This document shows positions 2,466 to 54,365 of a stretch of DNA of 64,000 nt, piece by piece. The position numbers and the translations under genes are program-made. The stretch is taken from the IMG/VR virus record IMGVR_UViG_2904150443_000004, positions 32,001-96,000 of that record. One strand, written 5' to 3'. The notes under the pieces are model-generated. The model worked only from the letters and a program-made list of their open reading frames with translations, was not told where the DNA came from and did not search any database. Every line of letters starts with the position of its first letter. Position 1 is the stretch's first letter. The DNA is from a virus. Lineage: Duplodnaviria; Caudoviricetes.

Positions 2466-5072
2466 CTATTTTATACCCTTTTCTTTTTTTAATTTTTCCC
2501 TATATTTTTTCTTTGCTTCTTTTACTTGAGCTCTAATAATTATTTTTGAGCAATCAGCACAATATTTTTTTGCGTTATTGGTTGCCAGCACACGTAAACC
2601 GCATAACTCGCAAGCTATGTATTTGTGATTGTATTTATTGTGAATATTTGCTTTTAAATTTTCAACTATAATGTCCCCAAAAGTAGACCATAGTGTTGTT
2701 TTATGACTGCTATTTTTGTCTCCATACAGATATTTCACTAATATGTCAACAACGTAGTAAGGATCACTATTGGTTTCAAGTAGCTCGTTACGGATTTTTC
2801 TATATGTATGAGTATTTTCAAAGGACGAACTGTTCTCGTCATAGTCAATTGAAATGAAGCGTTTCTTAAGATCTAACTTTGAGTATTTCTCTATGATGTC
2901 TTGATTCATTTCCACATCAAGTGATTTCATTAAATTGATGTAATCAAACGAGCCAATATTTGTTCTATTAAAGTTGATCCTACTGTTCGGAATTAGTTTA
3001 CCCATTCGATTCACAGTGCTGTTACTCATGGGTTCTACGTTTGATTCATTTTTATCCTTGGCATGAATAAAAAAGTGTGGAACTTTAGTCCTTGTATATC
3101 GAGTTATAAGTCTGTTGATTTTTTCTGGTCTTGTTGGTTTGTACAATGTCTTAGCATAATCAATAGTAAAGTTATTCTCCATACATAGAATCTTGATCAC
3201 ATCTAGGTTAATATCATTACTGTTCCATATTTTAGTTATATCATTGCTTATTACACCAATATTACCACCAGTGTAAGCAGCCTTAAGTCCATTGTAGATA
3301 TTCTCGGTATTAATTAACTCTGCACCTGCTTTTGCCATGTTGTAGTAAAGGGGAACAATGTCCTTCATATTTCTCTCGGCAACAGTAACTAGGGTAATGT
3401 CGTTCGATACTAGACTCTTGTCACCGTCATTGTCAAACATAAGCACTTTGCTTATGGGATCTTGGCAGCTCGTGTACAGACTCTTTGTGACATACCATCT
3501 TTTCATTTCTTTAGTTATTGTATTCATCCTGATTGCATGTTCTCGATACAAATGAGGACTTCTTAAGCAATCAAGCTTCTCATTATGGTTATAGAGTGAG
3601 CAAAATATATCTCCATTAGACAGTAATCCTTTTGGATTAGACTCTTTCAGAAATATAAATTCGCAGAATGCGTAAAGATCAGGAGATATGAAAGTGTACT
3701 TTCCTTCAATATCGATTTTTCCAGCCTTCGCATTTTTAATCAGACTCTTTTTAGTTTGCTTAATGATTTCTCGACTATATACATCTTTCAGTAGTTCAGG
3801 ATATATATCTAAAGCCTGTTGGAAGTAGTTCTTGTTTGTATTAGATTCTGTTACACCAAGAACTTTTAACATTGTTCTACGATCTTCTCCAAGGGAAGTA
3901 ATGACTTCCTTGGTTGAACTAGTAAGTTCAATTAGTTCATCTTCCGTAATGTCTGTTAAAGTCTGAATCATCTGATAATTTAATTTAGCATTTCCAATAA
4001 CATCTTCCTCTTCATTACACATTCCAGCTTGGCAGCCATATTGCTTGTAATAGAGCTTATATTCATCCCATGATGAATAATACTTCCACATTTTAAACTG
4101 ACTTTTAGTGAATATAACTTCAATTTTGTCTTTTAGAATATCGTATTCTTTCCCATAAATATCTTTTACAATTCCAGTATTCATGGGCGTCTCCTTGTTC
4201 TTCTCCCTAATGAATTTATCGAAAGGGAAGGGGACAAGTAATCCCTTCATCCAAGGCATTCTTATCATAACTGCTTTACCTTGGGTACGGGGTAGTATCA
4301 TTCCGCAGCCATCAGTATGGGTGATAGGTATGTCCATTTCCTTGCGCGAGATTGAGTATGTTTTATCATCAATAAAATCTACCGTTGCTTGAACATTAGT
4401 CTCCATATCTTCAACTACAATGGACTTATCAATATCGAATCCAATCCATTGCTCTGTAGCACTGTTACATAGGGCTAGGTAGGCGAGAAATTTATTAATA
4501 TTTACCCCACCAAGTTCATTAATTCGCTCAATCGACAGGCCACACATTAATGATTTTATATACTGACCCAGAATAGACTCTTTGATAAAGAGTGTTTTCT
4601 TGGTACGGATCTGACCTGCTGAAGCAGTAAAGCAAACATACTTTTCGTTCTTGTAAGTGAATCCATCTAAAATTAAATTCTGAAGAACTTTAAAGTGATA
4701 AGCTTGAACGATTATGATGTCTTCTGTTAATGTATTAGGTTCCATGCCTAATGTCCTAGTTAGTACTGACTCAAATACTGAAACAATGTTTTTGTCTTTT
4801 ATGTATTTATCATTGAAATCACGTACAGAGTTATTGGACTGCAATTTATCTAACAACAGGCTCTTTAAGTATGTTATTCGACCATTGAGTCTTTTTATTT
4901 GATTTTTTTGTTTTTTGATAAGTACTTCATCCTGCGTCTCATCCATAAGAGAGCGTATTTTCTTTTTATAATGACGGGAAATTTTTAACTTGCTATGTAT
5001 TTTGTATTCTTCCTTTGTGTAAAAAAAGCTCGTGTCTACACTGTATAACTGCACTTGCTTGTTAAGATTTAT
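2466..5072 (-). CDS. yonO: YonO-type single-subunit RNA polymerase; probable ATA start at 5072
   Basis: Catalytic DNDGD, LRSPH, ASAGQIR, HTDGCG; C-terminal CxxC..CxxC; GGGAGGG RBS 8 nt before an in-frame ATA. Confidence 0.92.
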   Translation of the reverse strand: MNLNKQVQLYSVDTSFFYTKEEYKIHSKLKISRHYKKKIRSLMDETQDEVLIKKQKNQIKRLNGRITYLKSLLLDKLQSNNSVRDFNDKYIKDKNIVSVFESVLTRTLGMEPNTLTEDIIIVQAYHFKVLQNLILDGFTYKNEKYVCFTASAGQIRTKKTLFIKESILGQYIKSLMCGLSIERINELGGVNINKFLAYLALCNSATEQWIGFDIDKSIVVEDMETNVQATVDFIDDKTYSISRKEMDIPITHTDGCGMILPRTQGKAVMIRMPWMKGLLVPFPFDKFIREKNKETPMNTGIVKDIYGKEYDILKDKIEVIFTKSQFKMWKYYSSWDEYKLYYKQYGCQAGMCNEEEDVIGNAKLNYQMIQTLTDITEDELIELTSSTKEVITSLGEDRRTMLKVLGVTESNTNKNYFQQALDIYPELLKDVYSREIIKQTKKSLIKNAKAGKIDIEGKYTFISPDLYAFCEFIFLKESNPKGLLSNGDIFCSLYNHNEKLDCLRSPHLYREHAIRMNTITKEMKRWYVTKSLYTSCQDPISKVLMFDNDGDKSLVSNDITLVTVAERNMKDIVPLYYNMAKAGAELINTENIYNGLKAAYTGGNIGVISNDITKIWNSNDINLDVIKILCMENNFTIDYAKTLYKPTRPEKINRLITRYTRTKVPHFFIHAKDKNESNVEPMSNSTVNRMGKLIPNSRINFNRTNIGSFDYINLMKSLDVEMNQDIIEKYSKLDLKKRFISIDYDENSSSFENTHTYRKIRNELLETNSDPYYVVDILVKYLYGDKNSSHKTTLWSTFGDIIVENLKANIHNKYNHKYIACELCGLRVLATNNAKKYCADCSKIIIRAQVKEAKKKYREKLKKEKGIK

Positions 5073-5227
5073 GATTAAAACCCTCCCTTGGTTTGTTTAT
5101 AAGAAAAATATAACAAAACACAATATTGAAAGTCAACAAAATTAAAAACAAAATATCAATATCATATTGACAAAAATAACCGACTAATCTAAATTTAGAG
5201 TATATTAGTTGGTGAGGTGATATTCAA

Positions 5228-6256
5228 GTGGAGAGCTGTACAATACAGGGATTAGTGTTAAACAACGTATACTCTGACATTATGGCATTTCTAAATCAGT
5301 ATGAGAGTAAAAACACAAGGAAAGAGTACAGAAGAGACATACAAGAATTTTTTCATTTTATATGCGGAAAAGAACTTGAATCATTGTTACCTGAAGATGT
5401 AATTAGTCGTAAGGGTACAAGATTATCTAAAAAGTGTGTTATTGAGTATCGTAATTACCTGAACTCAAAAGGTAATTCTAAAGGAACGAGAAACAGAAAA
5501 ATGTCAGCAACACGCAACCTCTATAAATTCTTACAGAGTGAAGGTTATGATATTGATCATATGATATTCGCTTTAAAACCACTCAAATACATTCCAGACA
5601 GTTATGAATCATTAACAAAAGAGGAGGTTATGACTCTAGCTGATTACTTAAAAAAACAAAGGTATGGAGATGAACTATATGCTTTTGTGTACTTAGCAGT
5701 TATCACAAGTTTTAGGGTGGACGCAATTTTAAATATAGATAAAAAGAAAGATATAAGAAAAGACAAGAACTCAGAGTTCTATCTTGTAACTGCTGTTGAT
5801 AAAAGAAATCAAAAAAGATCAATGCCTATTGAACTATGGTTATTTGAATTACTTGATAATCTTAATGGAGACACGCGCCTGTTTGAGAATCTAACAGTAG
5901 ATATTATTCATGATGCAATAACAAAGGCTGCAAAGGCTTTGGAGTTTGAAGGAAGAGTGGTAACACACTCACTAAGAAAAGTAGCGCCTACATTCGGACA
6001 AGAAAACGGGAATAGTGTGAAATCAGATATGGAACAAACAGGCCACGCCTCAGTCCAGACATTCATGAGTACATACGTGAAAGAGAAAATAAATTATGAG
6101 GATCTAGCTGGCATACAAATGTTCCGTACCATCGATGAGACGGTCTTTGATGACTTAAGTAAGGAACAGGTTTTGTCTTTACTGAAGAGCTTAAATCAAA
6201 ACGTATACAACCAACTTGCGAGACATCTGATGAGGGATGACAAAAAGGTTGTCTAA
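5228..6256 (+). CDS. Tyrosine recombinase with full catalytic set (YopP/SroD-like)
   Basis: N-terminal SAM-like domain (SKNTRKEYRRDI), R (SFR), K (DKRNQKR), HSLR, TGH and Y (MSTY). Confidence 0.88.
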   Translation: MESCTIQGLVLNNVYSDIMAFLNQYESKNTRKEYRRDIQEFFHFICGKELESLLPEDVISRKGTRLSKKCVIEYRNYLNSKGNSKGTRNRKMSATRNLYKFLQSEGYDIDHMIFALKPLKYIPDSYESLTKEEVMTLADYLKKQRYGDELYAFVYLAVITSFRVDAILNIDKKKDIRKDKNSEFYLVTAVDKRNQKRSMPIELWLFELLDNLNGDTRLFENLTVDIIHDAITKAAKALEFEGRVVTHSLRKVAPTFGQENGNSVKSDMEQTGHASVQTFMSTYVKEKINYEDLAGIQMFRTIDETVFDDLSKEQVLSLLKSLNQNVYNQLARHLMRDDKKVV

Positions 6257-6625
6257 TTGAAAACACTAAGTGGCACATTATCGTGACAAAAACATCAAAA
6301 ACAGAAAATGGTTATATGACAAAAGTATCTGAATCGAAACAGTACCAAACCCTTATAAACTAAGGGCTAGAGCGATTTGCTCATGAAAATATAGTTGATT
6401 TGAAAGAGCTTATAAATAACTGCCTTGACAAAAACACCGTTTTTGAAAAATCAGAGTACAAAAAACTTTGACAAAAACATCGATTTTGACTATATATAGA
6501 AAACACCATTTTCTTGACAAAAAGCTAAAAATGAACACAAAAATGAGGATGAGTGCGTGACAAAAAGCCCATTTTTGACTATAGAGTTAATAGATTTAAT
6601 AATTATTTAGTTAATATATTTAATA
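6238..6625 (+). repeat. Iteron-like TGACAAAA direct repeats plus AT-rich tract; candidate replication origin
   Basis: TGACAAAA at 6238, 6284, 6317, 6426, 6469, 6515 and 6558; near-pure A/T tract at about 6587-6625; directly upstream of the HTH protein. Confidence 0.65.
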
Positions 6626-6836
6626 TCTCCTGAACAAAATGAGATTTTGTCCAGTGGAGGAGAGTTCTTTTTGGATGTTAGATTGGTTGTTGTATTGTAA
6701 GACAATTATCTTTAGTTTTAGAGTGTATTGTACTTAGGATATGTATTTATATTGTCTTAGGGGGGATGTGTTCTGATTCCTGTAACTGGACTTAGAAATT
6801 GGACTGTAGAATTGATGTTAGAGAAAGAGGTGATAT

Positions 6837-7613
6837 GTGTATCTCATGAACTTTTGTATGAAGAGGATATATGTTAAATCTAATTGGTTTGATGATGGTA
6901 GTAACAAGTATCAGAAAATAGGGATAGATGGTTTCAATCTGTATTTAAATATGTTTCGGTTCAGACTATTTAATCAGGAACATGAATACACGTTTATTAC
7001 GTCGATATCTCTACTGAGAAAAGAAACGAAATACACAGCTCAGAGAATATTGGAGTTGTTAAAGGTATTAGTTAAAGAGAAAATTATTAAGATTGATATT
7101 TCCCGTTGGGATAGACTTCTTGATGTAAATGGGAAGATTGATACTGATAAGACAATTGTCATCACGGCTATTGATAAACCAGTTACGGATAAAAGAAGGA
7201 ATGAACATGGTGATATGATTGATTATCCTGTAACTATAAATGACCAGTACATAAGCTTAGATTTACCCCTTATGCAGCATTACATAGACTTAGGATTTGG
7301 TGAGAGGTATTTGGGATTACATTGTTTACTGAGCAGGTATTCGAACAATTCAGAAGGCAAGGCATGGATGTCCATTAATAAGATGGCTAGCACATTAGGA
7401 TTTGGGTATAAGAGTGTCCATGATATGATTCGTGAGTTGAATAAAAGGTATTTGTTATATAGTCGATATATTGAAACTGAGCAAACTGTTAATGGCAAGT
7501 CAGGAACAAAGTTTGAACACTACTTGTTGACTAATTTGGACTATAGAGACGAGTTTCTGAGAAGTTATAAGGATTTGATTGATAAGAATATTAAAAAGTG
7601 GGATAAAGAATAG
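6837..7613 (+). CDS. Winged-helix protein, putative replication initiator
   Basis: AWMSINKMASTLGFGYKSVHDMIRELNK is an HTH_36-like motif, with a second HTH-like segment N-terminally; adjacent to iterons. Confidence 0.6.
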   Translation: MYLMNFCMKRIYVKSNWFDDGSNKYQKIGIDGFNLYLNMFRFRLFNQEHEYTFITSISLLRKETKYTAQRILELLKVLVKEKIIKIDISRWDRLLDVNGKIDTDKTIVITAIDKPVTDKRRNEHGDMIDYPVTINDQYISLDLPLMQHYIDLGFGERYLGLHCLLSRYSNNSEGKAWMSINKMASTLGFGYKSVHDMIRELNKRYLLYSRYIETEQTVNGKSGTKFEHYLLTNLDYRDEFLRSYKDLIDKNIKKWDKE

Positions 7614-7622
7614 TGTGTATTT

Positions 7623-7655
7623 AACAGTTACCTTGTTACTGAGGTAGCTGTTTTT
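7623..7655 (+). terminator. Intrinsic terminator
   Basis: ACAGTTACCT/AGGTAGCTGT stem plus T tract after the initiator-like gene. Confidence 0.7.
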
Positions 7656-8589
7656 GTTTTGGATGAAAATTATCCCCCCATACTGGTACGTAATCGTGAG
7701 TGTAAAAAGTGATAATCGTGATTGCGATTATTTTAGGTGAGAAATGAGGATAGAGAGTAGTGTTTATATGGGCTAGAGAGTGATTTATGAGGTGACGTGA
7801 TAGAGAGAAGATTAGGTGATATCGCTAGAACTGAGCAATTATAAGGGTTATTTGGATACCGAAGGAGAGATATTAGACTAAATTGACGTTTTGGAGTGAA
7901 AATTGGAAATTTTAAAGGGTTATTTGAGACGATTACGAGAGAAGTAAAAGGTGATGAAAAGTGAGGATAGGTGAGTGATTATATGGGCTATATAGCTGTA
8001 TAGGAGAGATGAGTCACGATGTGTGTTGCGATTATAGTTACGATTATTTGAGTGTCAAAATTGGAAATTCTGAAGCGGGAAATGAGGTGATAATGTATAT
8101 CGGATGTTTTGTAAGTTGGCTGTGTGGATTGATGTGTTAGCCGACTTTTCCGACCAATTAGACTGATTTTAGTTGTAAACTACCCCCCTCTATATGGTCA
8201 TAAAACCCTTATGTTTACTGACTTTTAGCACCAACTAATAGACATTAGTAGCATTTTAACTGTTTTAGTTAGATTATTATATTAGTTGGACGATATTTTG
8301 CTTATTATTTTAGTGTGATGAGAGTGAGAAGGAGAAAGGGGAGACCAACGACACCACCATTATTAATAATAGTTAGGCTCCGAATAATCGTTATTGTAAC
8401 AGGAGCCGTTTGGCCAGTGTGATAAAGCAAGTTGTATAACTATATATGTGTATCAACACTCAATTACTGTTCATAGTCATATCACTTATCACGGCTTACA
8501 AGTTTATATCATATAAGAGAACTTCATCACAACATAACAATTAACACTATTTATTTAATAATTTACATTCATATATCAACTTTGATATA

Positions 8590-9864
8590 ATGGAATCACA
8601 AGCACATATCCTAATCACAACACAATCAAAGGAGGAAGTAACCATATCAACAATCAAAGTAGTCGATTCCATAATGGGGTCTGGTAAGACATCAGCAGCT
8701 ATCAACCTTATGAACTATGATCATGAGAACAATTACATTTTTATCACTCCATATCTATCAGAAATTGAACGAGTAAAGAAAGCATGTACTAGACGATTCT
8801 ATGACCCTAAGATCACAACAGTAGACGGTGAGAAGCACACTAAGTTTGACTCATTACATTATCTACTCATCAACAACAAGAACATTGCTTCTACTCATGC
8901 ACTATTTAAACGAGCTAATGAGGAGACAAAAGATCTTATCCATAGTGGTAATTATATTCTAATCCTAGATGAAGTAATGAACGTTATAGAGCAACTTGAG
9001 CTTAAACAGGGTGACATTGACTTGCTATTCAAACAAAAGCTTATCTATGAGAAGGATGGTTATATCCATTGGAACGAGTCCCAGAAGGATTATGACTCAC
9101 GATATAATGACATTAGAGATATGGCACTTAATAAGAACCTAATCATACATAAAGGTAAGATTCTAATCTGGACATTCCCAATAGAAGTATTCAAAGCCTT
9201 CAAGGAAGTATACATATTAACTTATCTATTCGATGCACAGATACAAAAATATTATTATGATATGAACAATGTTAAATATGAAAAGTATGAAGCAGTAGAA
9301 GATAGAGGATTCAACTATTACACATTCAGGGCAAAAACAGATAATACATATGAGGAACAGATTAAGAAAGAAATTAAAAGTAAAATAACTATTTATCAAG
9401 GTACATTAAATAATATTGGCGATCCTGATTACTCTTTATCAAAAAGTTGGTACACAAATAAAAAAGATCTATTACCTAAACTTAAAAACAATACTGAAAA
9501 CTATTTTAAGAACAAAGTAAAAGCTAAGTCTAATCAAGTAATGTGGACTACATTTAAACAGTTTCAATCTAAGATAAAGGGACGAGGATATGCCAAATCA
9601 TTTGTTCCATGTAATGCAAGAGCCACAAATGAATTTAAGGATAGAATACATATTGCATATACGATTAACTATTTCCTTAATCCTATTATTGAAGGTTTCT
9701 TTAATGACAAGAATGTGAAGATTAATGAAGATCTATATTCCGTATCAGACTTGTTACAATGGGTATGGAGAAGCGGGATAAGAGAAGGGAATAGTATAAC
9801 TATATACATTCCATCTAAGCGAATGAGAGGACTATTAAAGCAATGGTTAGATAATGAACTATAG
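8590..9864 (+). CDS. SF2 DEAD/DEAH-like helicase (YonV-like); possible ATA start at 8644
   Basis: Walker A DSIMGSGKT, LILDEV and QWVWRSGIR; GGAGG RBS at 8631-8635. Confidence 0.85.
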   Translation: MESQAHILITTQSKEEVTISTIKVVDSIMGSGKTSAAINLMNYDHENNYIFITPYLSEIERVKKACTRRFYDPKITTVDGEKHTKFDSLHYLLINNKNIASTHALFKRANEETKDLIHSGNYILILDEVMNVIEQLELKQGDIDLLFKQKLIYEKDGYIHWNESQKDYDSRYNDIRDMALNKNLIIHKGKILIWTFPIEVFKAFKEVYILTYLFDAQIQKYYYDMNNVKYEKYEAVEDRGFNYYTFRAKTDNTYEEQIKKEIKSKITIYQGTLNNIGDPDYSLSKSWYTNKKDLLPKLKNNTENYFKNKVKAKSNQVMWTTFKQFQSKIKGRGYAKSFVPCNARATNEFKDRIHIAYTINYFLNPIIEGFFNDKNVKINEDLYSVSDLLQWVWRSGIREGNSITIYIPSKRMRGLLKQWLDNEL

Positions 9865-10117
9865 AGCTAGTAAAACATATTTACTAAGTGGGTGTCTAAA
9901 AGTCAATAAATATCTACTCTATAGGCTCGTTGCTCTTAAAGGGAGGTAAGATTATTTATCAAGAATATAATACAGCTAACGCGCATTCAAAAGGCAGAAT
10001 GCTTGTTCATCCCATCTAAGACCGTGATGGGCTGTTATTGGGATCTATAATGTTGTCAGGAATGTTCCGTATTCAAATTTCACGATGAGTTAATTTATTG
10101 ATATTTAATTATAAAGA

Positions 10118-10147
10118 CTTTACAAATGAAAAGGTATGTATTATAAT
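10118..10147 (+). promoter_or_regulatory. SigA-type promoter with CTTTA-N6-(T/A)AAAG operator
   Basis: TTTACA(10119)-17 bp-TATAAT(10142); palindrome at 10118-10133. Confidence 0.7.
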
Positions 10148-10182
10148 CATAAATATAAAATAACACTAAAGGGGATATAATA

Positions 10183-10788
10183 ATGAACAATAATGCAACA
10201 TATAGTAATGGTACTTGGAAAAAGGGACTCGGAACAGAACTTGAATTGATATACATAATTGAAACCACCAAATTTGATGAGGAAGTAGACAGAGATTTTA
10301 CCAACATCAAAAGATATGAGCGCAACAATATTCAAGAGGCAATCGACTTAATCAATCAATTCCAACAACATGGGTACAAAAACATTAACCTTATGACCCA
10401 GATCAATCATAACGGTGATACAATTCTAGAGGATTCGAGCGAAACAGGTATCGAATTTGCTGTTAATACATCAATCAATAAAGATTATAATGAAGTAAAT
10501 AAGCAAAAAGAATTATTAATGAATAATGAAAAACTGTTCAATGGGTTCATTGAAAAATATAAAGCAGAAAAGGCATTCATTGAGTTTAAAGACGAACAGG
10601 CAAACAATAGGGATGAACAGGGCTTACACTGGTACGAAATGCTGCTTCGTCCATTGTCTCCATATTGCCAACCAAATGGGCACATTAAATATGATGAGAC
10701 TAAAGGAAGACATGGAATTATTGCATATGATAGAGAATTAACCGCTAACGAATTAGAAGAGTATGAATTAAGAAAATGGATCTTATAA
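10183..10788 (+). CDS. Protein with C-terminal DarA_C-like (defence against restriction) domain
   Basis: C-terminus YEMLLRPLSPYCQP...RHGIIAYDRELTANELEEYEL resembles DarA_C. Confidence 0.55.
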   Translation: MNNNATYSNGTWKKGLGTELELIYIIETTKFDEEVDRDFTNIKRYERNNIQEAIDLINQFQQHGYKNINLMTQINHNGDTILEDSSETGIEFAVNTSINKDYNEVNKQKELLMNNEKLFNGFIEKYKAEKAFIEFKDEQANNRDEQGLHWYEMLLRPLSPYCQPNGHIKYDETKGRHGIIAYDRELTANELEEYELRKWIL

Positions 10789-10882
10789 AATAAAGTATTG
10801 AAATAAACAAGACGTTTACTATGCATATATAAAGAAATATATTATAATATCACTATAAACAATAAAGGAGTGCTATTATATT

Positions 10883-11164
10883 ATGAAGCCATTAGACAAA
10901 GAAACACTCTTCAAACTCGTAAAAGGACTGATGAACAAAGGATTCTATGTTATATCAACACATGCAGAAGATCGCATGAAAGAACGTGGATTTACAAGGG
11001 AAGAGATCGAACACATACTGTTTAACCCTTGTGATCTTGTAGGTGAACCACGATATGATGAAGAATATAAAACATATAAATATAGAATTAAAAATGAAGA
11101 GAATAGAAGCGTAGTTGTCAGCATAGACTTTGATAATCTTGTAATAGTGGTAACAGTCATATGA
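10883..11164 (+). CDS. DUF4258-family (BrnT/RelE-like) putative toxin
   Basis: STHAEDRMKERGFT...VIVVTV pattern. Confidence 0.7.
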   Translation: MKPLDKETLFKLVKGLMNKGFYVISTHAEDRMKERGFTREEIEHILFNPCDLVGEPRYDEEYKTYKYRIKNEENRSVVVSIDFDNLVIVVTVI

Positions 11165-11209
11165 TTGTTGCCTTTTCTCTTTGCCGAGTGATATATTAAT
11201 GATCAAGAG

Positions 11210-11452
11210 GTGATACAAATGTTGGAGCAAGATAAGCAAGAACTAATTAACCTTGGTAAGCGAATGTTTTGCACAGAGTGTGGGAAGCGAGAACATGAGT
11301 TTACGACCATTAATAAAGAAGAAACGATTAACGGTAAAGTCTACACTATTCCTAACGTCCCTGTGATGCGTTGTAAGCATTGTAATGCTATTGCTTATCC
11401 ATCGTTTGCATTCGACCATATAGACGAATACAAAGAACAATTAAACCAATAG
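11210..11452 (+). CDS. YgiT/MqsA-type zinc-finger protein, putative antitoxin
   Basis: CTECG...IPNVPVMRCKHC directly downstream of the DUF4258 gene. Confidence 0.75.
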   Translation: MIQMLEQDKQELINLGKRMFCTECGKREHEFTTINKEETINGKVYTIPNVPVMRCKHCNAIAYPSFAFDHIDEYKEQLNQ

Positions 11453-11524
11453 GGAACGAATGGCCTTATTGGTTTTTCTTTTGAAAAATAATAATAGAAA
11501 ATAATAAAAATCATCTTATAACCA

Positions 11525-17100: not shown

Positions 17101-19368
17101 ATGTACTATGGAGATAAGAGAGAAGCAAAAGTAATGATCATGGAAAAGTTAATTGAAAACGGTTGGAAAGTGTATGGATATAAAGCAGATGAATCTGACT
17201 CGATGGTTGATTACTACTCTCCAGCTTCATGGGATGGAATCGCAGAAAAAAACGGATATGTTCTTGTTATCGATCAATACAATAATCGCCAATCTGGATA
17301 TCAAGTAAAAAAATATAATTATAATAACAAAAAATACATAGAAAATAAGAGGATTGCAAAACTAACTGCAATGATGAACGATTCAGCATCCACTGAAAAT
17401 GAAAAAGCTTCTTGTGCTGTGCTTATCGAAAAAGAGAAAGAAAAAGCAGGAGAGGGGCAAGAATATACAGTAATCGAAACTTACCCAACGTTTCAACATG
17501 GCAACCCTAAAGCCTGCTCATGGCACATTGAAAAAGATGGTCAAATTATTGCTAAGGGGAAAGGTGTATTTTCAGTTAATGAATACAATTGGGAAGATAA
17601 AACTAAAACAGCAGATGAACAAAAAGCAGAAAAACTAAATAAATTCGTTAAGAAAATTGAAAAAGTATTAACTGACTCGGATGCATTAAAATCTGAAGTA
17701 GTGAAAGTAGAAAAGACAGTTATTAAACCAGTTGAAAAGGAAGGAAAAACTATTAACATTGGTGACATCCTTTCTTTTTCGTATCATGGACATTATTGGA
17801 TTGTCAATGATGTTTATACAGTAGGTGAACAGATTCGCGTAACGTATGAGATTCTAGGAAGCGAAAAAAGAGGGTATCAACGTAAAAAAAATGCTAAGAG
17901 ATACTACCAACCAATGAACCGCCTTGAAAAAGAAATGCAAGAAGGGAGGGTAAAAGTTTACACATTACAAGAGGTAATCGAATATACAGAAAAAACTGTA
18001 TTCACTAAAACAAAACGTTCTCAGAAAGTTACTAATGCTATTCAGCTTGAAACACAAGAAGCATATGACACACAAACACAAGACCCAAAAGAGAATAATG
18101 CTACGGATCAAGAACAAGCTTCTAAACGTCAACTGTGGGCTTTACATTGTGCCACAAGATTAAATACAACTAATCTAGTCATTAGTAAACAGAAGGCCAG
18201 TGATTTGATTAGCAAATCGAAGGCAGGTCAAAATATTGTTGAAGAAATTGAATTTATGATGAATATCGATGATAGCAACAATGAAGCTAAAGTAAGTCAA
18301 ACAACCGAAAGTAAAAAGCAACACGATCAAACAAATTTCATTGAAAAAATTGATAAACAGATCGAGTCAGCCCAAATTAAATTAGATTCTTTATCTGGTA
18401 ATTATAAAACAAATACGTGGAAACGGCAGCAAGAAGAAGTCGGTAGAGAAATGAAACGTAATTCATTGCGTTTTGATATTTCTTTGCTTGAGTATCTTAG
18501 AAATAAAGCTACATTGAACGAAATGACTAATTTTGAGCAATGTCTTTTAGTTGGATCTTTTCGTGATCAGATACAGAATTATTCAATACAGAAATATGAA
18601 TATAAATATCCTGAAATTGATACTCGTTTTGATTTAAATAACTGGTATAATGCTGAAATACCTAAAAAGCAAAAAAGACTGCAAAAGGCAGGGATATATA
18701 ATACTCATCAACTGATTGAAGCAGTAGAAGAATATAAAATTATTAAAGATAAAATACAAAGACCTATTGATCCAATCAAAGTAAAAATCAAGAAACTGGA
18801 ATCAAATGTGAAATTGGTTAAAATTTATGGATATTTTCCTACACCTGCGAACATTGTTAATCAAATGATTGAATTGGCAGATTTAAGAGACGGAGAAATA
18901 GTTCTAGAACCGTCAGCAGGCAATGGCAATATACTAGATGGAATAACCGTCCATGCACAAGAAAATGGTTTAGAATTGAAATTAGAAGCGATTGAACGGA
19001 ATCATACTTTATCAGAAATATTAAAATTGAAAAACTATAATGTAATTTCAGATGACTTTATAACATATGAATGCGAAATAAAATATGATAAAGTTATTAT
19101 GAATCCACCATTTGAAAAGAATCAGGATATTGAACATGTATTACATGCTTACAGTTGCTTAAAAGATGGAGGTAAATTGATTGCTATCATGTCGCCTCAT
19201 TGGACATTTGCAAATGACGCTAAAAGTATACATTTCCGAAGTTGGTTAAGTGACAAAGGATATTATGAAAAGCTCCCAGATGGTTCATTTAAAGAGTCAG
19301 GAACAGGGGTGAATACTATATTAGTTGTGATTGAAAAAATTGAAATCGAAGCATCTGAAGCCGTTTAG
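17101..19368 (+). CDS. Large multidomain protein with C-terminal N6-adenine DNA methyltransferase
   Basis: YFPTP, VLEPSAGNG (motif I), IMNPPF (motif IV), FKESGTGV. Confidence 0.85.
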   Translation: MYYGDKREAKVMIMEKLIENGWKVYGYKADESDSMVDYYSPASWDGIAEKNGYVLVIDQYNNRQSGYQVKKYNYNNKKYIENKRIAKLTAMMNDSASTENEKASCAVLIEKEKEKAGEGQEYTVIETYPTFQHGNPKACSWHIEKDGQIIAKGKGVFSVNEYNWEDKTKTADEQKAEKLNKFVKKIEKVLTDSDALKSEVVKVEKTVIKPVEKEGKTINIGDILSFSYHGHYWIVNDVYTVGEQIRVTYEILGSEKRGYQRKKNAKRYYQPMNRLEKEMQEGRVKVYTLQEVIEYTEKTVFTKTKRSQKVTNAIQLETQEAYDTQTQDPKENNATDQEQASKRQLWALHCATRLNTTNLVISKQKASDLISKSKAGQNIVEEIEFMMNIDDSNNEAKVSQTTESKKQHDQTNFIEKIDKQIESAQIKLDSLSGNYKTNTWKRQQEEVGREMKRNSLRFDISLLEYLRNKATLNEMTNFEQCLLVGSFRDQIQNYSIQKYEYKYPEIDTRFDLNNWYNAEIPKKQKRLQKAGIYNTHQLIEAVEEYKIIKDKIQRPIDPIKVKIKKLESNVKLVKIYGYFPTPANIVNQMIELADLRDGEIVLEPSAGNGNILDGITVHAQENGLELKLEAIERNHTLSEILKLKNYNVISDDFITYECEIKYDKVIMNPPFEKNQDIEHVLHAYSCLKDGGKLIAIMSPHWTFANDAKSIHFRSWLSDKGYYEKLPDGSFKESGTGVNTILVVIEKIEIEASEAV

Positions 19369-26261: not shown

Positions 26262-26660
26262 ATGACTGACAGAGTTGTTCAATATAAGAGAGATGATATT
26301 TGGTTGGCAGATTTGGGTGGATCAGCTGGTTCTGAGCAAGGTGGAATTAGACCTGTATTATTGATTTCGAATGATATTGGGAACCGCTTTAGCCCTGTAG
26401 TTATCGGTGCTGTAATTTCTTCTGCAACTACTAAAAAGAGAATGCCAACACATGTAAGTCTGCCAGCCAACAGGCATGGGTTAATTAAAGACAGTTTTGT
26501 TGGTACTGAACAATTAAAGACAATTGATAAATGGTGTCTGATTGAAAAATTAACAACAATAGATGAAGAGACTATGGACGAAATAAACGAAGCATTGATA
26601 TTAAGCTTAGGACTGAGAGATTACATAGATAAAAAATATATAAAGAGAAAGGATGTATAA
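26262..26660 (+). CDS. mazF: PemK/MazF-family endoribonuclease, no upstream MazE
   Basis: KRDDIWLADL...GSEQGGIRPVLLISNDIGN...EQLKTIDK. Confidence 0.92.
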   Translation: MTDRVVQYKRDDIWLADLGGSAGSEQGGIRPVLLISNDIGNRFSPVVIGAVISSATTKKRMPTHVSLPANRHGLIKDSFVGTEQLKTIDKWCLIEKLTTIDEETMDEINEALILSLGLRDYIDKKYIKRKDV

Positions 26661-40520: not shown

Positions 40521-41858
40521 ATGAGTGGAAATGTACAAACGGTTGACCTGTACGAAGTGCTTCCAGATGTGCTTACTGAAGTGAATAAAAACAAAGAAAT
40601 GCAAAGAGATATTGAAGAGATACTTGCAACAAAACATAACATCGCAAGAGGAACATTTGCTGAAATTTTGATAAATAATGGTCGTTTCGACGAAATATTA
40701 AATAACATTGAACGTACAGTCGTTGTTAAAGTTGTGAATGAAATAACTAATGACAATAGAGTGAATCCAAGTAATTTTTACACAAAAACGGAGATCAATA
40801 AAGCAAATAAGTACAAAAGAACAAATGGTGGAGAAGTGTCACTTCCATATACTTTTGAGTCTGTACTGAAGACTTCAGATATTGATTATTTAACCGTTTT
40901 AAGTTACCAAGACATCGCAAAACTTTGGAACTACGGAATTCTAACTTACAATTTCCAATCTCAAAGATTATCCAAGAAAAAAATGAATTCAAAAAATAAA
41001 ATTGTTGAGAAGGCTGATGTTAATTTACGAAGCGTGAAAAACATTGTTAGATTGATGCAAGAGGGCAAATATAGTCCATCAACATTACTATTTAATGTAC
41101 TTGTCGATGGTAAAAGTTCTATTGAATACGAAGATGGAGAACTTACAGTTACCGAAGAAAGTACTATCAACTTAATTGATGGCATGCATCGCGTACAAGC
41201 TATTTTGAAGGTGATTGAAGAGAATCCTGATTTTGAAGGGTATATGAATGTTGATATAAAACATTACACCCTTGAGAAAGCTCAACAGCTCTTAGCCATA
41301 ACAAATATGGTAAACCGTTTTGATAAGACATTGATCAAAAATTATATGGCTGAATCGATTGGCGCGAAGATTACAAAAGATTTGATGACTATAGCTGAAC
41401 TCAAAAATAAAGTGTCTATTAAGACCACTTTAGACAAGAAGCTTAATTACTACACAAACTTTGCAATCTTGTCTGAAGCTATTGAATCTGTATTTGAGCC
41501 TGAAAATACTAAGGATCAGTTCGACTATGCCGATGTTCTTAAAAAGTTCTTCGGTTACATGATCCCCTCATATGAAGAGAAATTCAAAAATAAGAACGAG
41601 GAAATCAAAACAAGTTGGTTTACACATCACAACATGTTCGTAGGTTTTGTAGTGATTGCTAAGAAACTTTATGATAAATACGGAAAAGATTATCCAGTTG
41701 ATGAGATTGTAAGAATTATTGATGGAATAGACTTTTCGAAGAATGAAGATTCTGAACTGAATCAGATTTTGACAACACAAGGGAAAGTAAATAGTAATAA
41801 AGTTAAGAAGAATATTAGAGAGTTTTTTGATACGAAGGTAGACGAGCTGCTTTCATAA
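40521..41858 (+). CDS. DndB/DGQHR-family ParB-like protein (YopQ/SroE-like)
   Basis: INLIDGMHR motif; about 445 aa; directly upstream of the YopR-like gene. Confidence 0.8.
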   Translation: MSGNVQTVDLYEVLPDVLTEVNKNKEMQRDIEEILATKHNIARGTFAEILINNGRFDEILNNIERTVVVKVVNEITNDNRVNPSNFYTKTEINKANKYKRTNGGEVSLPYTFESVLKTSDIDYLTVLSYQDIAKLWNYGILTYNFQSQRLSKKKMNSKNKIVEKADVNLRSVKNIVRLMQEGKYSPSTLLFNVLVDGKSSIEYEDGELTVTEESTINLIDGMHRVQAILKVIEENPDFEGYMNVDIKHYTLEKAQQLLAITNMVNRFDKTLIKNYMAESIGAKITKDLMTIAELKNKVSIKTTLDKKLNYYTNFAILSEAIESVFEPENTKDQFDYADVLKKFFGYMIPSYEEKFKNKNEEIKTSWFTHHNMFVGFVVIAKKLYDKYGKDYPVDEIVRIIDGIDFSKNEDSELNQILTTQGKVNSNKVKKNIREFFDTKVDELLS

Positions 41859-41891: not shown

Positions 41892-42869
41892 TTGTCTAAT
41901 AAGATATATGAAGATAAATTGTTCAATGAAGATTTAAAATATGAGTTCATCAATCAATATGGATTTGGTACTCAAAAAGTTATTGTTCGCCTATTTAAGG
42001 TTTCTCAAGTAATGGAGTCTGATATGGGAAAGGATATATATGACTTCAATCGTGAGGAATTAAGAAAATTCTTTTTTTATCTTTTACCTAAGACTGAAGC
42101 TGCGAGTAATTCGAATGTCACTTGGATTCAGAAATATATTGAGTGGGCAATTGATGAAGGCTATAAGGAAGGGCTAAACCCTCTCGACATGGTCGATTCA
42201 ACTTGGAAGAAGCAGTTTGCTAATGCTAATCTGAAGCAGCTCTGGACTGACAAAGAGATAGATGAGATTGTTGACCCAACTAAACGTGCTAATTATCAAG
42301 ACGCTGCACTTGTTATGATGCTTTTCTCAGGGATTAAAGGCCAAGGGAACAGTGAAATACTTAGTCTTAGAGAAAAGGATATAAACTTTAAAACAAATGA
42401 AGTGCTATTACACGATGAAGATGGAAGCACAAGGACTACAATCGTAAGTGATAAATGTATTGAATTCATGCGTAAGGCATTAAATGAGACAGAATATGAA
42501 AAGATGAATGGCTTTGCTTCGCCAGATATCAAAGCTCCAACTGCGAAGTTGGTTGAAAATGAATATGTGATCAAGAGTGCAACAACACGCACTATTCACT
42601 TTGAAGAGGCAGATAAGTTCATTGTAAGTAGAAGGATCTCAAAAATTGCAGATGAATTAAATATGCCTACATTTACGCCTACTGCAATCTTTAGAAGTGG
42701 CATGCTCGCACTGGCTAAGGATGCTTACTTGCAGTCTGGTGAGTTAACTGATGACGCAGTAAAAGTGATTCAAGTGAAATTTGGTGGTAGTGGTGACACA
42801 ATCGATTATAGATTGAAGCAAGATTTATTAAATGCAGAACTTGTAAAAGAAGTTTATCAAATACCCTAG
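41892..42869 (+). CDS. Catalytically degenerate integrase-fold repressor (YopR/MrpR/SroF-like)
   Basis: MGKDIYDFNREEL N-terminus, FSGIKG (catalytic R lost), AIFRSGM (HxxR lost). Confidence 0.8.
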   Translation: MSNKIYEDKLFNEDLKYEFINQYGFGTQKVIVRLFKVSQVMESDMGKDIYDFNREELRKFFFYLLPKTEAASNSNVTWIQKYIEWAIDEGYKEGLNPLDMVDSTWKKQFANANLKQLWTDKEIDEIVDPTKRANYQDAALVMMLFSGIKGQGNSEILSLREKDINFKTNEVLLHDEDGSTRTTIVSDKCIEFMRKALNETEYEKMNGFASPDIKAPTAKLVENEYVIKSATTRTIHFEEADKFIVSRRISKIADELNMPTFTPTAIFRSGMLALAKDAYLQSGELTDDAVKVIQVKFGGSGDTIDYRLKQDLLNAELVKEVYQIP

Positions 42870-50259: not shown

Positions 50260-50332
50260 GATTTATATCATGATAAAGAAGTCAGACAGGTAAGCGATAA
50301 AAGGAATGTTTCATTAATAAAGAGGTGTTCAT

Positions 50333-51319
50333 TTGAAATTTCCTGATGAGTGTATTTGTGCCATTAAATATAATTTGAATACAATTAAAACAGTAGAACG
50401 CAGAACAGAATACTTTTCATTCATTGAAAGACAGGAATTCATTAAAGAGTATTATCGACTTAAAAAGGCATGGTACGCAAGTGATGTTAAAGCATATTAT
50501 GCAGAGTTGAAAGAGATGATCGATGTCAATCAAATGTTGACTTCGATTTAGAAAATTATAAAAAGGAGAATGTTCATGCCTAGATCAAGAACGTATAAGC
50601 TGTTTCATTCGTGTGAGGAAGAAGAGAGTAAAATCTATTTTAAAACTACTATGAAAGATGAATACTTGATAAAGCTTATTAAAATCTGGTTGCTGCGTCT
50701 TTCAAATATTGTCCAAGAATATGACTTCGGAACAGATGAGATGATGAAAATCCTTGAGACATTCAATTGTGTGCAGGTTAATGAAAAAGATGTTAGAACT
50801 TACTATGAGGCCAATTTGTATGATATCTGGGAGTATGCGAACACATGGTATTCTGATGAGGAGGTTTACAGTCCTGAGTTTACTAATCCAGAAGCAGAGA
50901 AAGTATTTAAGCTAGTAGTTAAACGCAATGAAGAATGGTATGGAAAGCTTAGATGTGAAGAAAATAATTCAACACGCAAAAAATTGTGGGAAGAATTATG
51001 GAAAGATATTTGTACTAATGAAGATGGCACATTAAATCTTGAGCAGATTCAACGAGAGCTTGCCGATTTACATTATATGATAGAGCATGTTCCTAAAGTA
51101 TACAGTGCAGTAACAGGGGACACATTATCTAAGCCAACTTATGCCTCAAAAACGGTTATTAGATTCTATGAAAATCACTTAAATGAAGTGGTAAAAGATA
51201 GGTTTGATGAGGTAATTACTGCTCTTGAAGAAAAGTGGAATAACGCAGATTTAGATGGTGAGGATGGAATTGCTGAAGGGCTTACGTATGCTATTGACTT
51301 GATTGAAAATTATAAATGA
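50333..51319 (+). other. Two hypothetical genes (50333-50551, 50570-51319)
   Basis: RBS-preceded ORFs upstream of the PAPS reductase. Confidence 0.65.
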
Positions 51320-51331
51320 TAAGAGGAGCGT

Positions 51332-52276
51332 GTGGAATTATTGAAAAGAGGCTCAAAAGAATATCCTAGACATGTTTGTGGTTTAAGTGGAGGCAAGGAC
51401 TCTACGGCGATGGTTATATACATTAAGGAAAACTATCCAGAAATATTTGATAAACTTGAACTATTCTTCACAGATACGGGAAGCGAACTACCTGAAATTT
51501 ATACATATCTTGATAGGCTAGAGAAGCATCTAGGAAAGCCCATTCTACGGATTAAAGCTGCTCCAAAAACAACTGAAAAATTTAAAGTTGTAAGTGGGAT
51601 AGATGAATCGAATCCTTTCGAGGAACTATTGGAACAATATAACGGTTTTCTTCCAGCACCAAATGCAAGATGGTGTACCAGAACAATGAAAATTGTCCCT
51701 TTAGAACAGTGGATTGGTAAAGACCATTGTGTAAGTTATATTGGGATTAGAGCTGATGAAGAAAGAGAAGGCTATAACAGCTCAAAAAGCAAGAGTAAAA
51801 ACATTAAATCTAGATTCTTGTTTCAAGAGGATGGATTAGTACTTAAAGATATTTATCAAATTCTTGAAAATTCTATTGGACTTCCCGAATATTATAAATG
51901 GAGAACAAGATCAGGATGCTATTTTTGTTTTTATCAACGTCGTGTTGAATGGGCTATCTTATATAATCTACATCCAGAATGGTATGAGGAATCTAAAAAA
52001 TATGAAACTCAACATTCTGACGGGAGATTATATACATGGGTGAAAGATAAACCTCTTGAGTATATTGAACAAAATTCAGTTGAAATAATAATTAGATACA
52101 TAAAAAAACAATATAAAAAAGCAATAAATAAAAATGTGTTCACCTTCAAAGAGGATGAAATGATAGAGCTGATTAAAAGTGGGGAACTGAAGAAGCTGCT
52201 AGATAGTTGGGACATGAAAAAACTGCATGATATTGATGGCGAAAATAAAGATGGTTGTACAATATGTGCTATATAG
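51332..52276 (+). CDS. PAPS reductase-family (DndC-related PP-loop) protein
   Basis: SGGKDS, DTG, RWCT..MK, GIRADE, RSGCYFC and terminal CxxC. Confidence 0.9.
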   Translation: MELLKRGSKEYPRHVCGLSGGKDSTAMVIYIKENYPEIFDKLELFFTDTGSELPEIYTYLDRLEKHLGKPILRIKAAPKTTEKFKVVSGIDESNPFEELLEQYNGFLPAPNARWCTRTMKIVPLEQWIGKDHCVSYIGIRADEEREGYNSSKSKSKNIKSRFLFQEDGLVLKDIYQILENSIGLPEYYKWRTRSGCYFCFYQRRVEWAILYNLHPEWYEESKKYETQHSDGRLYTWVKDKPLEYIEQNSVEIIIRYIKKQYKKAINKNVFTFKEDEMIELIKSGELKKLLDSWDMKKLHDIDGENKDGCTICAI

Positions 52277-52291
52277 GGACGGTGCTTCTGA

Positions 52292-52882
52292 TTGGACTGG
52301 AAACTTTATCGCGCTAATGGAGAATTTCTTCAGGAGGTGAATTGTCAGTACGATTCACTTGATATCGCCGTAATGATGTATGATGCTACTAAAATTGAAG
52401 TTGATTTCATCAATAAGGAAGCTAGAATACTTGTAATTGGAAATATTACAGAAGTAGAAGAGCTAAAGAGTAGGCTTCTTAATGTGGGAGCTTGGAAAAG
52501 AGAAGGTAGAAAAGCTCCTCATAAACCTTTATTATTATTGTTCTCATTAAGCAAACTACTTAAAGAGAATAGAAAAACTCTAAAGTTTGATGAAATAAAA
52601 AATGAATTCAAGAAAATCCTTCTTAAATTCGGCGGAACAAAGCGACCACATCCTGAGTATCCATTTATATATCTTAAAAACGATGGGATTTGGAAGCTTA
52701 ATGCCGACATTAATGGTAAGCATATGAACAGTGAACAATTGAGTATGCTTGTTGGTGGATTTAATGATGATATTTGCTCAATCTTGGAGAATAATCATGA
52801 ACTAATTGAAGATTTGATTGACATGATATTAGAAGAGTTCTTCCCTAAAGAAGTGCATTGTAGTTTATTAGAAGCTATATAA
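52292..52882 (+). CDS. Sulfur-binding-domain (SBD)-like phosphorothioate DNA reader, no nuclease domain
   Basis: WKREGRKAPHKPLLLL and PEYPFIYLKNDGIW match SBD-HNH family motifs; the ORF ends before any HNH. Confidence 0.7.
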   Translation: MDWKLYRANGEFLQEVNCQYDSLDIAVMMYDATKIEVDFINKEARILVIGNITEVEELKSRLLNVGAWKREGRKAPHKPLLLLFSLSKLLKENRKTLKFDEIKNEFKKILLKFGGTKRPHPEYPFIYLKNDGIWKLNADINGKHMNSEQLSMLVGGFNDDICSILENNHELIEDLIDMILEEFFPKEVHCSLLEAI

Positions 52883-52906
52883 GGAATACAATAAAAACAA
52901 TATTTC

Positions 52907-54365
52907 ATGAGCCAATCACGAAAGGTGGGGTTTGGAGAAATGAAAATCCATGGAGATGCTAGTGATAATGAAATAAGTATTGAAATTGGAGATATTATTT
53001 CCATAGGAAGCAGTTACTATCTAATTGCTTGGAACTTAAAAGAGTTCCAAAGTGTAAATGGATATCATCATGACGGAATTCGATTAGTTAATTTATCTAC
53101 TAGTACAGTAACAGAGCAGCGTTACGGCAGTATTAGTGAGCTAAAAAGTATCTTGCTTCGTGAAGATAGAAAAGTTGTGATATATGATGGTGAGAGTGTA
53201 GAAATGATTTTATCTAGAAAATAAAAAGTTAAAACTATACATATAAATGATGAAATATAGATTTTAAAGGGTGATACTATGAATTTCAATAATAAGATGA
53301 ATAAACTCAGGGAAGAAATTGAGTTGAAACAGCGTGAGTTAGATATATTGGAAAAGGATAATTTTAATCCATTAGGAAAGTGGAGAATTAGCACCGAGGG
53401 AGATTGTGAAGGTCGTTCTAAGAAACAGCTTGGGGATTATACAGGTAATTTACTTGATATTGTAAAACAATTGAGTAATCAAGCATTCTATTCTCTAGAC
53501 TGTGAGAGAGTTGAGTATTTACATACAGAACATAAAAAGGAGAGTAAGGAGGTTCATTTTAGGGTTATAGATAAAAGCATAAAACTGTTTGATAAAGATG
53601 AGCAATTACGTAAGTTGTTACCACATGTTTCCGAAGGTCATTCTTTAAGTCATGGTTATTATTTTGGCGCTGTGAAGTTGGAATGGGAAGAAAAGTGAAA
53701 CCTAATCTATTCTAAAAGGAGAAGTGATAATTATCGGTAAAACTATTTGTAAGTTTATTGCTTATACATTAATTGGCGTTATTCTTTATTTCTCGATATT
53801 CATGCCTGAACTATCAATTACTTTAACTGGTGGTTTTGCATGGGCTGCTGTTCTATTATCTTATGGTTTTGGATTTATTCTTGTCTACATTGGTTTGTTT
53901 GGAGGAGAGTTCACTTACAGCTCTAAAGGTATTAAGGGTTGGATTAAGGAAATGAGAAAAAGAAACCAAAAATAAATAATAAAAACATGTAAGGGGATTT
54001 ATGAAATGAATAAACGAGATCTTGATATTGATCTTGTAATATGCAATGCTGCAACTCCTTTGCCATGGTTTGTACACAACACTCAGCTTGGAAGATGCCA
54101 TACGTACACCAGCATTGACGGTGTATTAACGATGGTAGCAGAAGATGCTCATACAGCAGATGCAATATTCATTGCGGCAGCACGCGAAGGTTGGCCTGAA
54201 GCCATTAGCAGAGCAATATCAGCTGAAAGAGAGGTAGATAGGCTCCAAAAGGCATTACATGAGATCAACGATCATATAAGAGGCACATCTAATCCAATAT
54301 CATATATTGTAGAAACACTACATCAGACATTGCCAGAATACATAGAAAAAGCACCTGAATTTTAA
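52907..54365 (+). other. Hypothetical genes (52907, 53279, 53724 membrane, 54006 Ead/Ea22-like)
   Basis: 54006 has AATPLPW...ADAIFIAAAREGWP; boundary motifs between genes. Confidence 0.65.

Follow-up and report, generated by a model that had tools for sequence, protein, structure and literature searches.

What would a provirus do with a DNA phosphorothioation enzyme that stands without its usual partners, beside a phosphorothioate (PT)-binding domain that carries no nuclease? The question is raised by two adjacent genes in the 64,000-nucleotide window analyzed here, which comprises bases 32001-96000 of a 146,367-bp IMG/VR provirus (IMGVR_UViG_2904150443_000004; GC content, ~33%). From its gene content, we take the provirus to be an SPbeta-like Bacillus/Paenibacillus prophage. 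The first gene encodes a lone SspD-type enzyme of the PAPS-reductase family, and the second joins a small domain to a complete sulfur-binding domain (SBD). We propose, with a probability of roughly 0.45, that the two may form a phage-borne PT writer/reader module with a counter-defence role, built from Ssp-type parts. An earlier note on this DNA had described two adjacent genes 15 nt apart; both were confirmed as open reading frames (ORFs), at 51332-52276 (314 aa, GTG start) and 52292-52882 (196 aa, TTG start), each on the + strand and separated by a 15-nt gap. The locus is composed of the following features, given in window coordinates:

51332..52276, + strand: lone SspD-type PP-loop (PAPS-reductase family) enzyme, 314 aa (PADLOC SspD, own hidden Markov model [HMM], motifs, and tree)
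52292..52441, + strand: small-protein domain, residues 1-50 of the 196-aa fusion (stand-alone homologues, AlphaFold 2 model, and locus linkage)
52442..52462, + strand: junction, residues 51-57, in place of the stop codon and spacer of relatives (comparison with locus L010 and alignment with protein P0160)
52463..52882, + strand: complete SBD, residues 58-196, and stop codon, without a nuclease (profile, pocket residues, and fold)

The first gene encodes an orphan SspD-type enzyme

The earlier note had called the first product a PAPS reductase. That call was right, and PADLOC scores, conservation within our own HMM, and a phylogenetic tree place the protein specifically in the SspD type. Both Pfam PAPS_reduct (E value of 5.3e-12) and PHROG 424 (3.6e-35) match the 314-aa ORF. 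The PADLOC SspD model aligns residues 13-313 to model positions 1-276 of 277 with an E value of 5.5e-90 and 299.8 bits, and the rival PADLOC models score far lower (BrxP, 33.9 bits; DndC, 28.5 bits). Because the PADLOC SspD model also matches 6/14 control genomes at an E value of ≤0.001, the SspD call rests on the score and not on a bare match. Against an SspD HMM of our own, trained on 45 sequences (43 taken from SspD loci of bacteria or IMG/VR, L009 and L010, together with that of the window), the window protein scores 371 bits.

All positions conserved in at least 90% of these 45 SspDs are retained by the window SspD, including the PP-loop (S19-G20-G21-K22-D23-S24) and five cysteines (C115, C196, C199, C309, and C312). 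The PP-loop and the five cysteines are also invariant across 28 phage-type SspDs that share 55 to 76% identity. Judged by its motifs, the window SspD appears to be catalytically intact and looks active. Neither the Pfam nor the PADLOC profiles identified a methylase domain in the 314-aa protein.

Compared with the SspDs of SspA-B-C-D operons, to which it is 38 to 50% identical, the window SspD is distinct. Inserts at residues 77-92, 258-262, and 284-301 distinguish it from most operon SspDs, and the tree splits 30 phage-type SspDs from 42 operon SspDs with 100% support in the Shimodaira-Hasegawa-like approximate likelihood ratio test. By their source names, members of the phage-type group occur in genomes of Paenibacillus and of three Bacillus species (B. 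subtilis, B. velezensis, and B. halotolerans); SPbeta-like prophages of the B. subtilis group have an SspD of 316 aa (cluster of P0057). Searching a phage database with the window SspD returned 177 records, all with <60% identity and none spanning 80% of the query. No SspA, SspB, or SspC was found by PADLOC models or by our own HMMs within the 146-kb provirus, to which the search was confined; our own Ssp HMMs detected SspD alone. The window SspD is an orphan within the provirus.

The second gene encodes a sulfur-binding domain without a nuclease

Two motifs, HKPLLLL and YPF..L..DG.W, had led the earlier note to assign an SBD to the second protein. Both are present (H77-K78-P79-L80-L81-L82-L83 and Y123-P124-F125..L128..D131-G..W134), and the assignment is backed by a profile match to half of a known enzyme and by matches to solved SBDs. 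The NCBIfam model NF045808, "phosphorothioated DNA-binding restriction endonuclease," is matched only over positions 2-149 of 284, its N-terminal half (E value of 1.5e-31), with a score of 109.6 bits that lies under the 180-bit whole-protein cutoff. By sequence, the protein matches the SBD chains 7CCJ/7CC9/7CCD (E value of ∼7e-4) and 8H0L (0.018). The Pfam copy used has no SBD model, and the window protein, P0001, and P0160 received no Pfam family; PF26340 was encountered solely as a precomputed annotation.

Comparison with SBD structures, a check that the earlier note had proposed, agrees with the motifs. An AlphaFold model of the 196-aa protein (mean predicted local distance difference test score [pLDDT] of 84.2) yielded 14 Foldseek matches in the PDB at an E value of ≤0.001. 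All 14 are SBD entries (7CCJ, 7CC9, 7CCD, 5ZMO, 5ZMN, 8H0L, and 5ZMM), and the predicted fold gives a template modeling (TM) score of ∼0.7 on the target. The sulfur pocket of ScoMcrA, as described in PMC6224610, comprises H116, R117 (Lys in most homologs), Y164, and P165. In our 24-sequence SBD alignment (A1), residues A75, P76, H77, K78, Y123, and P124 are invariant, and the His, Lys, Tyr, and Pro of this set in the window protein correspond to the ScoMcrA pocket residues given in that work; H77, K78, Y123, and P124 also align with the SprMcrA SBD. By its profile match, pocket residues, and predicted fold, the 196-aa protein carries an SBD.

The absence of an HNH nuclease was likewise borne out. 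The 196-aa ORF ends within the SBD-HNH linker of its relatives (alignment A1), Pfam gives no HNH_2 match in the protein, and a tblastn search of the 146,367-bp provirus with an HNH half returned a best E value of only 0.35. A tblastn search of the phage database with the SBD protein gave no match.

The fused form is derived and is conserved in a second genome

The closest relative of the window locus (L010) lies in a prophage-like region of Paenibacillus sp. HGH0039, and its SspD is 70% identical to that of the window. Its SspD gene is followed by a separate small gene, which has an ATG start and an AGGAGG Shine-Dalgarno sequence and ends at 11096. After a 64-nt spacer, a 286-aa SBD-HNH gene begins in another frame at 11161. 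The small gene of the window has a TTG start behind a weaker Shine-Dalgarno sequence and has lost its stop codon; the frame runs on into the SBD, and the HNH domain is gone. Because L010 has a separate small gene and a full SBD-HNH, the window form is, on this sequence comparison, derived from an SBD-HNH ancestor by gene fusion and HNH loss; both L010 and the protein P0161 keep the HNH domain.

A protein search over 1.84 billion representatives at an E-value cutoff of ≤1e-30 gave three matches: the window's own called protein, P0160 (197 aa), and P0161 (a 286-aa SBD-HNH). P0160 aligns to window residues 1-196 with 48% identity and 2 gap positions; its junction corresponds to that of the window protein, and its C terminus lies two residues further on. 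P0028, whose identity to the window SspD is 73%, is encoded by the same Paenibacillus genome as P0160, and the longest contig given for each of the two is 1,266,271 bp. That the frame has stayed open while 52% of the amino acids diverged speaks for selection acting on the fused protein without HNH and against a decaying remnant. The earlier note had considered that the SBD-like ORF might be a truncated remnant of an SBD-HNH gene; the descent from SBD-HNH through HNH loss stands, and the decay does not, as P0160 carries no breaks at 48% identity.

Within a sample of 401 Paenibacillaceae genomes, 28 were matched; 22 SBD matches lay in open frames of 273 to 337 aa, and in 2 cases the small gene was found alone. 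Short SBD matches were considered as further stand-alone SBDs and rejected, as, of the three inspected, P0162 and P0167 reach the HNH motif and then stop and the tail of P0164 is unrelated. On the SBD tree, which omits the truncated sequences P0004, P0012, and P0016, the four phage-type SBDs lie near one another without forming a supported clade that would point to a donor.

A small partner protein accompanies SspD- and DndC-type enzymes

Residues 1-50 of the fusion do not belong to the SBD. They match 14 stand-alone proteins of 48 to 74 aa with 55 to 70% identity. Within this small family (alignment A3), W3, K4, L5, N17, C18, Q19, Y20, D21, D24, and A32 are invariant, with one cysteine among them. 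The AlphaFold 2 model of the small domain has a beta-beta-alpha-beta-beta arrangement (pLDDT of 95.1). Searches for a solved structure of related fold gave none (Foldseek best E value, 0.31; VIA-align best Z score, 4.5; Atlas best, 0.77), and profile scans gave no family match for the small protein. Z scores against a domain of the sulfurtransferase MnmA (4.0), the putative formate dehydrogenase accessory protein 2pw9 (3.9), and FdhD 4pde (3.5) fell within the common range and were not used. The small partner family is previously undescribed.

At 10/10 loci examined, the window included, the small gene is ≤3 kb away from a phage gene of the SspD or DndC type, in most cases by no more than one gene. 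An SspD-type gene is located upstream of it in 6/10 loci (the window, L008, L009, L010, L171, and L202), and an orphan DndC-type gene directly downstream in the other 4/10 (L170, L172, L173, and L174). Two further loci (L175 and L176) gave weak matches that were not confirmed by tblastn and were excluded. The small protein was not seen in the operon SspD loci mapped. Because of its linkage at 10/10 loci, the small protein is, by gene order, a phage partner of PP-loop enzymes from both PT families, i.e., of SspD- and DndC-type enzymes.

One of the DndC-type loci (L170, 7538-9630 of a 178-kb viral contig) consists of a nucleoside 2-deoxyribosyltransferase-like gene, the gene for the small NCQYD protein, and then the DndC-like gene. 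The latter overlaps the end of the small gene and encodes a 492-aa protein (PADLOC DndC, 3.4e-74). No DndD- or DndE-like gene was seen within the 7 kb inspected (4501-11498).

SspD and SBD genes are linked in bacterial loci

With the SspD protein as the query, 80 bacterial and 7 viral loci were fetched and mapped. In bacteria, SspA, SspB, SspC, and SspD usually stand in this order, and what comes next varies: it may be SspF/SspH, PbeA/PbeC, a helicase-nuclease set, or SBD-HNH (representatives were named by PADLOC). Conservation of the gene pair, which the earlier note had listed as a check, was found beyond the window: an SBD-bearing ORF starts ≤160 nt after SspD in 9/80 bacterial loci (L010, L011, L021, L023, L028, L037, L051, L070, and L075), including the prophage-like region of L010, and an SBD lies ≤7 kb from SspD in 15/80. 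These post-SspD genes mostly encode SBD-HNH proteins of ∼300 aa; in two loci the SBD heads longer proteins, of 1507 aa (L021) and 786 aa (L051). The loci other than L010 are bacterial SspABCD loci from several phyla. Around solitary Paenibacillaceae SBD-HNH genes, SspD was found in 0/20 loci (1.5-kb flanks). For comparison with other PT systems, <3.6% of predicted PT-dependent enzymes lie near dnd clusters according to PMC7461809. In the BREX type 4 PT locus described in PMC12914056, mcrA was cloned with brxP and brxC (brxP-mcrA-brxC) and was not needed for PT synthesis.

Another HNH-less SBD occurs in a genome of the genus Paenibacillus (G094; L181, 7510-15974, minus strand), in an ORF of 174 aa that encodes an SBD alone, with no trace of HNH left. 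The ORF comes after an Ssp-like cluster, whose products are an SspB-like protein of 291 aa, an SspC-like protein of 1113 aa, and a divergent PAPS reductase of 266 aa, and a gene for a protein resembling gp82 of mycobacteriophage L5 likewise follows the cluster. The SspB-like and SspC-like labels were read from translations, and the profile scan covered only the PAPS reductase and the gp82-like protein. A tblastn search with the window SspD did not match the 266-aa PAPS reductase. On the SBD tree, the G094 SBD-only ORF sits among full-length enzymes. Because it lies inside this full-length clade, HNH loss from SBD genes is, by tree position, a recurrent event.

A candidate phage PT writer/reader module

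What was observed are the identities of the domains, their intact motifs, the lack of SspA/B/C and of HNH, the gene linkage, and the persistence of the fused form; from these, we infer all biochemical steps and the biological role of the module. SspD, with ATP and sulfur supplied by a host cysteine desulfurase, would thiolate DNA during phage DNA metabolism, and the small domain would serve as an adaptor or sulfur relay. The tethered SBD would then bind the PT product without cutting it. Such binding could hold the writer on PT-DNA, or it could block PT sites from PT-dependent SBD-HNH nucleases or PT-sensing effectors. The net outcome would be protection of the phage DNA, i.e., counter-defence.

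An enzymatic phage module acting on DNA is favored because of the intact motifs, the partner held in common with orphan DndC enzymes, the fusion to a product-binding domain, and the nucleotide-metabolism neighbors; thymidylate-kinase-like and NT5C nucleotidase genes lie just upstream of the pair in the same + strand run. The joining of the small partner to a product-binding domain may be read as a "Rosetta-stone" fusion. By analogy, a phage PT writer with a counter-defence role is plausible because of two precedents. A Vibrio phage pair, composed of a PAPS-reductase domain fused to a Dam methylase and a gene of unknown function, is described as overcoming PT-based Dnd defence (bioRxiv 10.1101/2021.05.05.442762). 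In the Tdp system, a single dedicated gene, that for TdpC, is reported to suffice for PT synthesis (PMC12914056); according to the literature consulted, the established PT writers other than Tdp need several proteins.

A broader form of this proposal, which we consider doubtful, is that large Firmicutes phages, those of the SPbeta type among them, can write sulfur into DNA on their own. Their writer would consist of an orphan SspD- or DndC-type enzyme and a 50-residue cysteine protein that replaces SspB/SspC or DndD/DndE. In the window, where the cysteine protein is fused to a nuclease-free reader, new PT sites would be occupied at once and thereby concealed from PT-dependent nucleases or PT-sensing effectors.

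Several observations weigh against the writer/reader proposal. An NTPase partner is needed for PT synthesis in the Ssp, Dnd, and BREX type 4 systems, whose minimal sets are given as sspBCD, dndCD, and brxPC (PMC12914056), and no such partner is present in the provirus. A sulfur relay through C18 would depend on one invariant cysteine. The module is also unstable among relatives. SspD is broken in two relatives (L008, 7992-8938 of a 128-kb viral contig, across several frames; L202, 8730-9447, G142, with residues 194-269 missing), the small gene downstream being intact in both. Two other loci (L009 and L171) have SspD and the small gene without an SBD. L010 retains a PT-dependent SBD-HNH beside the putative writer, an arrangement that sits uneasily with a phage thiolating its own DNA. 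The fused form itself is rare: it is represented by 2 protein clusters only, and it occurs in 0/401 of the sampled Paenibacillaceae genomes and 0/93 genomes of the genus of L009. Adjacency of the genes for P0160 and P0028 is likely rather than certain. Finally, the position of the pocket His is occupied by Tyr in P0160 and by Asn in P0161.

Alternative explanations

The earlier note had offered two functions, a writer/reader pair and anti-defence by masking of PT sites, and the evidence gathered here does not choose between the two. The module might act in counter-defence without writing PT, a reading that we regard as unlikely. The SBD fusion would coat host PT sites and thereby blind effectors such as SspE, SspD would poison or titrate the host Ssp complex, and the phage would make no PT. 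SspE activity relies on PT in host DNA, as described in PMC9646914, and a masking protein would look like a nuclease-free reader, as the 196-aa protein does. The absence of the partners of known PT synthesis from the provirus also fits. Between the two genomes with the fused form, the SBD fusion has diverged faster than SspD (48% versus 73% identity), as would be expected in an arms race, and the anti-Dnd activity of a phage PAPS-domain protein offers a precedent, the mechanism of which is not established in that report (bioRxiv 10.1101/2021.05.05.442762). However, a decoy enzyme needs neither the PP-loop nor the conserved cysteines, yet both are invariant in the 28 phage-type SspDs. The small partner, moreover, accompanies orphan DndC-type enzymes at SBD-free loci, which points to an enzymatic core. 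The sequence covers the provirus only, and the host Ssp system on which masking would act is hypothetical.

Improbable, too, is a role in defence of the lysogen, in which a cut-down Ssp system plus SBD-HNH would mark self and restrict PT-modified or unmodified invaders, with the window form being regulatory or weakened. Prophages often carry defence genes, the nuclease is retained in L010, and the order SspD then SBD-HNH recurs at bacterial defence loci (9/80), in the slot of SspFGH or PbeA/PbeC. The position of mcrA within brxP-mcrA-brxC of the BREX type 4 PT locus (PMC12914056) would fit such a role as well. Nevertheless, the nuclease-free window pair cannot restrict, SspB and SspC are absent, and the pair is co-oriented inside a nucleotide-metabolism/replication block instead of being set apart.

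Least probable is that the locus is a nonfunctional leftover, with a truncated SBD-HNH fused by accident to the small gene in a decaying region: the derived fusion and HNH loss, the relatives with broken SspD (L008 and L202) or a lost SBD (L009), the TTG start with its weaker Shine-Dalgarno sequence than in L010, and the HNH-less SBD of G094 inside a full-length clade would all fit, but the 196 codons are all open with every family-invariant residue kept, P0160 has the same architecture unbroken at 48% identity in a second genome, and no HNH debris lies downstream, where the next gene follows after 24 nt.

Relation to known systems

The window locus resembles SspABCD(-SspE/FGH) systems in the full-length profile match of its SspD, the 38 to 50% identity, and the retained PP-loop and cysteines. 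It differs in having no SspA, SspB, or SspC in the provirus, in its extra inserts, in its separate tree group, and in the small protein encoded next to SspD. With the PT-dependent type IV enzymes ScoMcrA, SprMcrA, and SBD-Hga (5ZMO, 7CC9, and 8H0L), the 196-aa protein shares the predicted SBD fold and the His-Lys and Tyr-Pro pocket; unlike them, it has no HNH or SRA domain, carries a fused 50-residue domain, and is prophage encoded. The likeness to the Vibrio anti-Dnd pair is by description only and consists of a phage orphan PAPS-reductase-family protein beside another gene. As described, the Vibrio protein is methylase fused and was compared with DndC, whereas that of the window is SspD type, unfused, and paired with an SBD. 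TdpC likewise serves as a precedent, by description only, for one-gene PT writing.

SspD and SBD are known families. The literature searched gave no paper on the orphan phage SspD group, the small partner family, or the nuclease-free SBD fused to the small partner, nor any on a phage-borne SspD or a nuclease-free phage SBD; orphan SspD nodes of this kind may nevertheless appear among the supplementary network tables of PMC12914056. Stand-alone SBDs already serve as tools for PT detection and separation, as described in PMC9982451 and PMC11349849, and a natural nuclease-free variant could be put to the same use.

PT is, to our knowledge, the only known natural modification of the DNA backbone. 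Conserved lone phage SspDs, together with a small partner fused to a reader, make phage-autonomous phosphorothioation testable. The same is true of natural reader-only SBDs as shields or decoys against PT-based immunity.

Genomic setting of the locus

Nearly all genes in the window are on the + strand, and no terminator-like sites were found on this strand between 48000 and 56000. The earlier note had placed the gene pair in an interval delimited by a boundary motif at 50298 and 52892. This motif was not confirmed: no repeated element was found, the window contains a single copy of the 21-nt word at 52881-52901, and only weak two-copy repeats are present in the region. The stretch from 50298 to 53300 had no DNA match in the phage database. 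For the two ORFs upstream of SspD, 50333-50551 and 50570-51319, none of the mapped loci contains a relative and none of the Pfam, PHROG, NCBIfam, or PADLOC profiles gave a family; they are not counted into the SspD/SBD module. Downstream, the next gene (52907-53224) begins 24 nt after the SBD ORF and has a weak PHROG 1945 match only. The start of this gene is probably the ATG at 52940, preceded by GAAAGGTGGGG, rather than 52907.

Other genes in the window encode an MrpR-type recombinase, YolD with an ImpB/UvrX-type polymerase, and a YpsA/SLOG protein. A DndB-family protein of 445 aa is encoded at 40521-41858 (+ strand; Pfam PF14072 E value, 1.8e-15; PADLOC DndB, 4.4e-8), directly upstream of the MrpR-type recombinase gene (41892-42869), and adds a second PT-associated family to the provirus. 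By blastp (E value of ≤0.01), it does not resemble the neighbors of bacterial SspD loci. Further conflict-related genes of the provirus encode a DarA_C-like protein (10183-10788), a 755-aa protein with a C-terminal DNA methyltransferase domain (17101-19368), and a PemK/MazF-like toxin (26262-26660).

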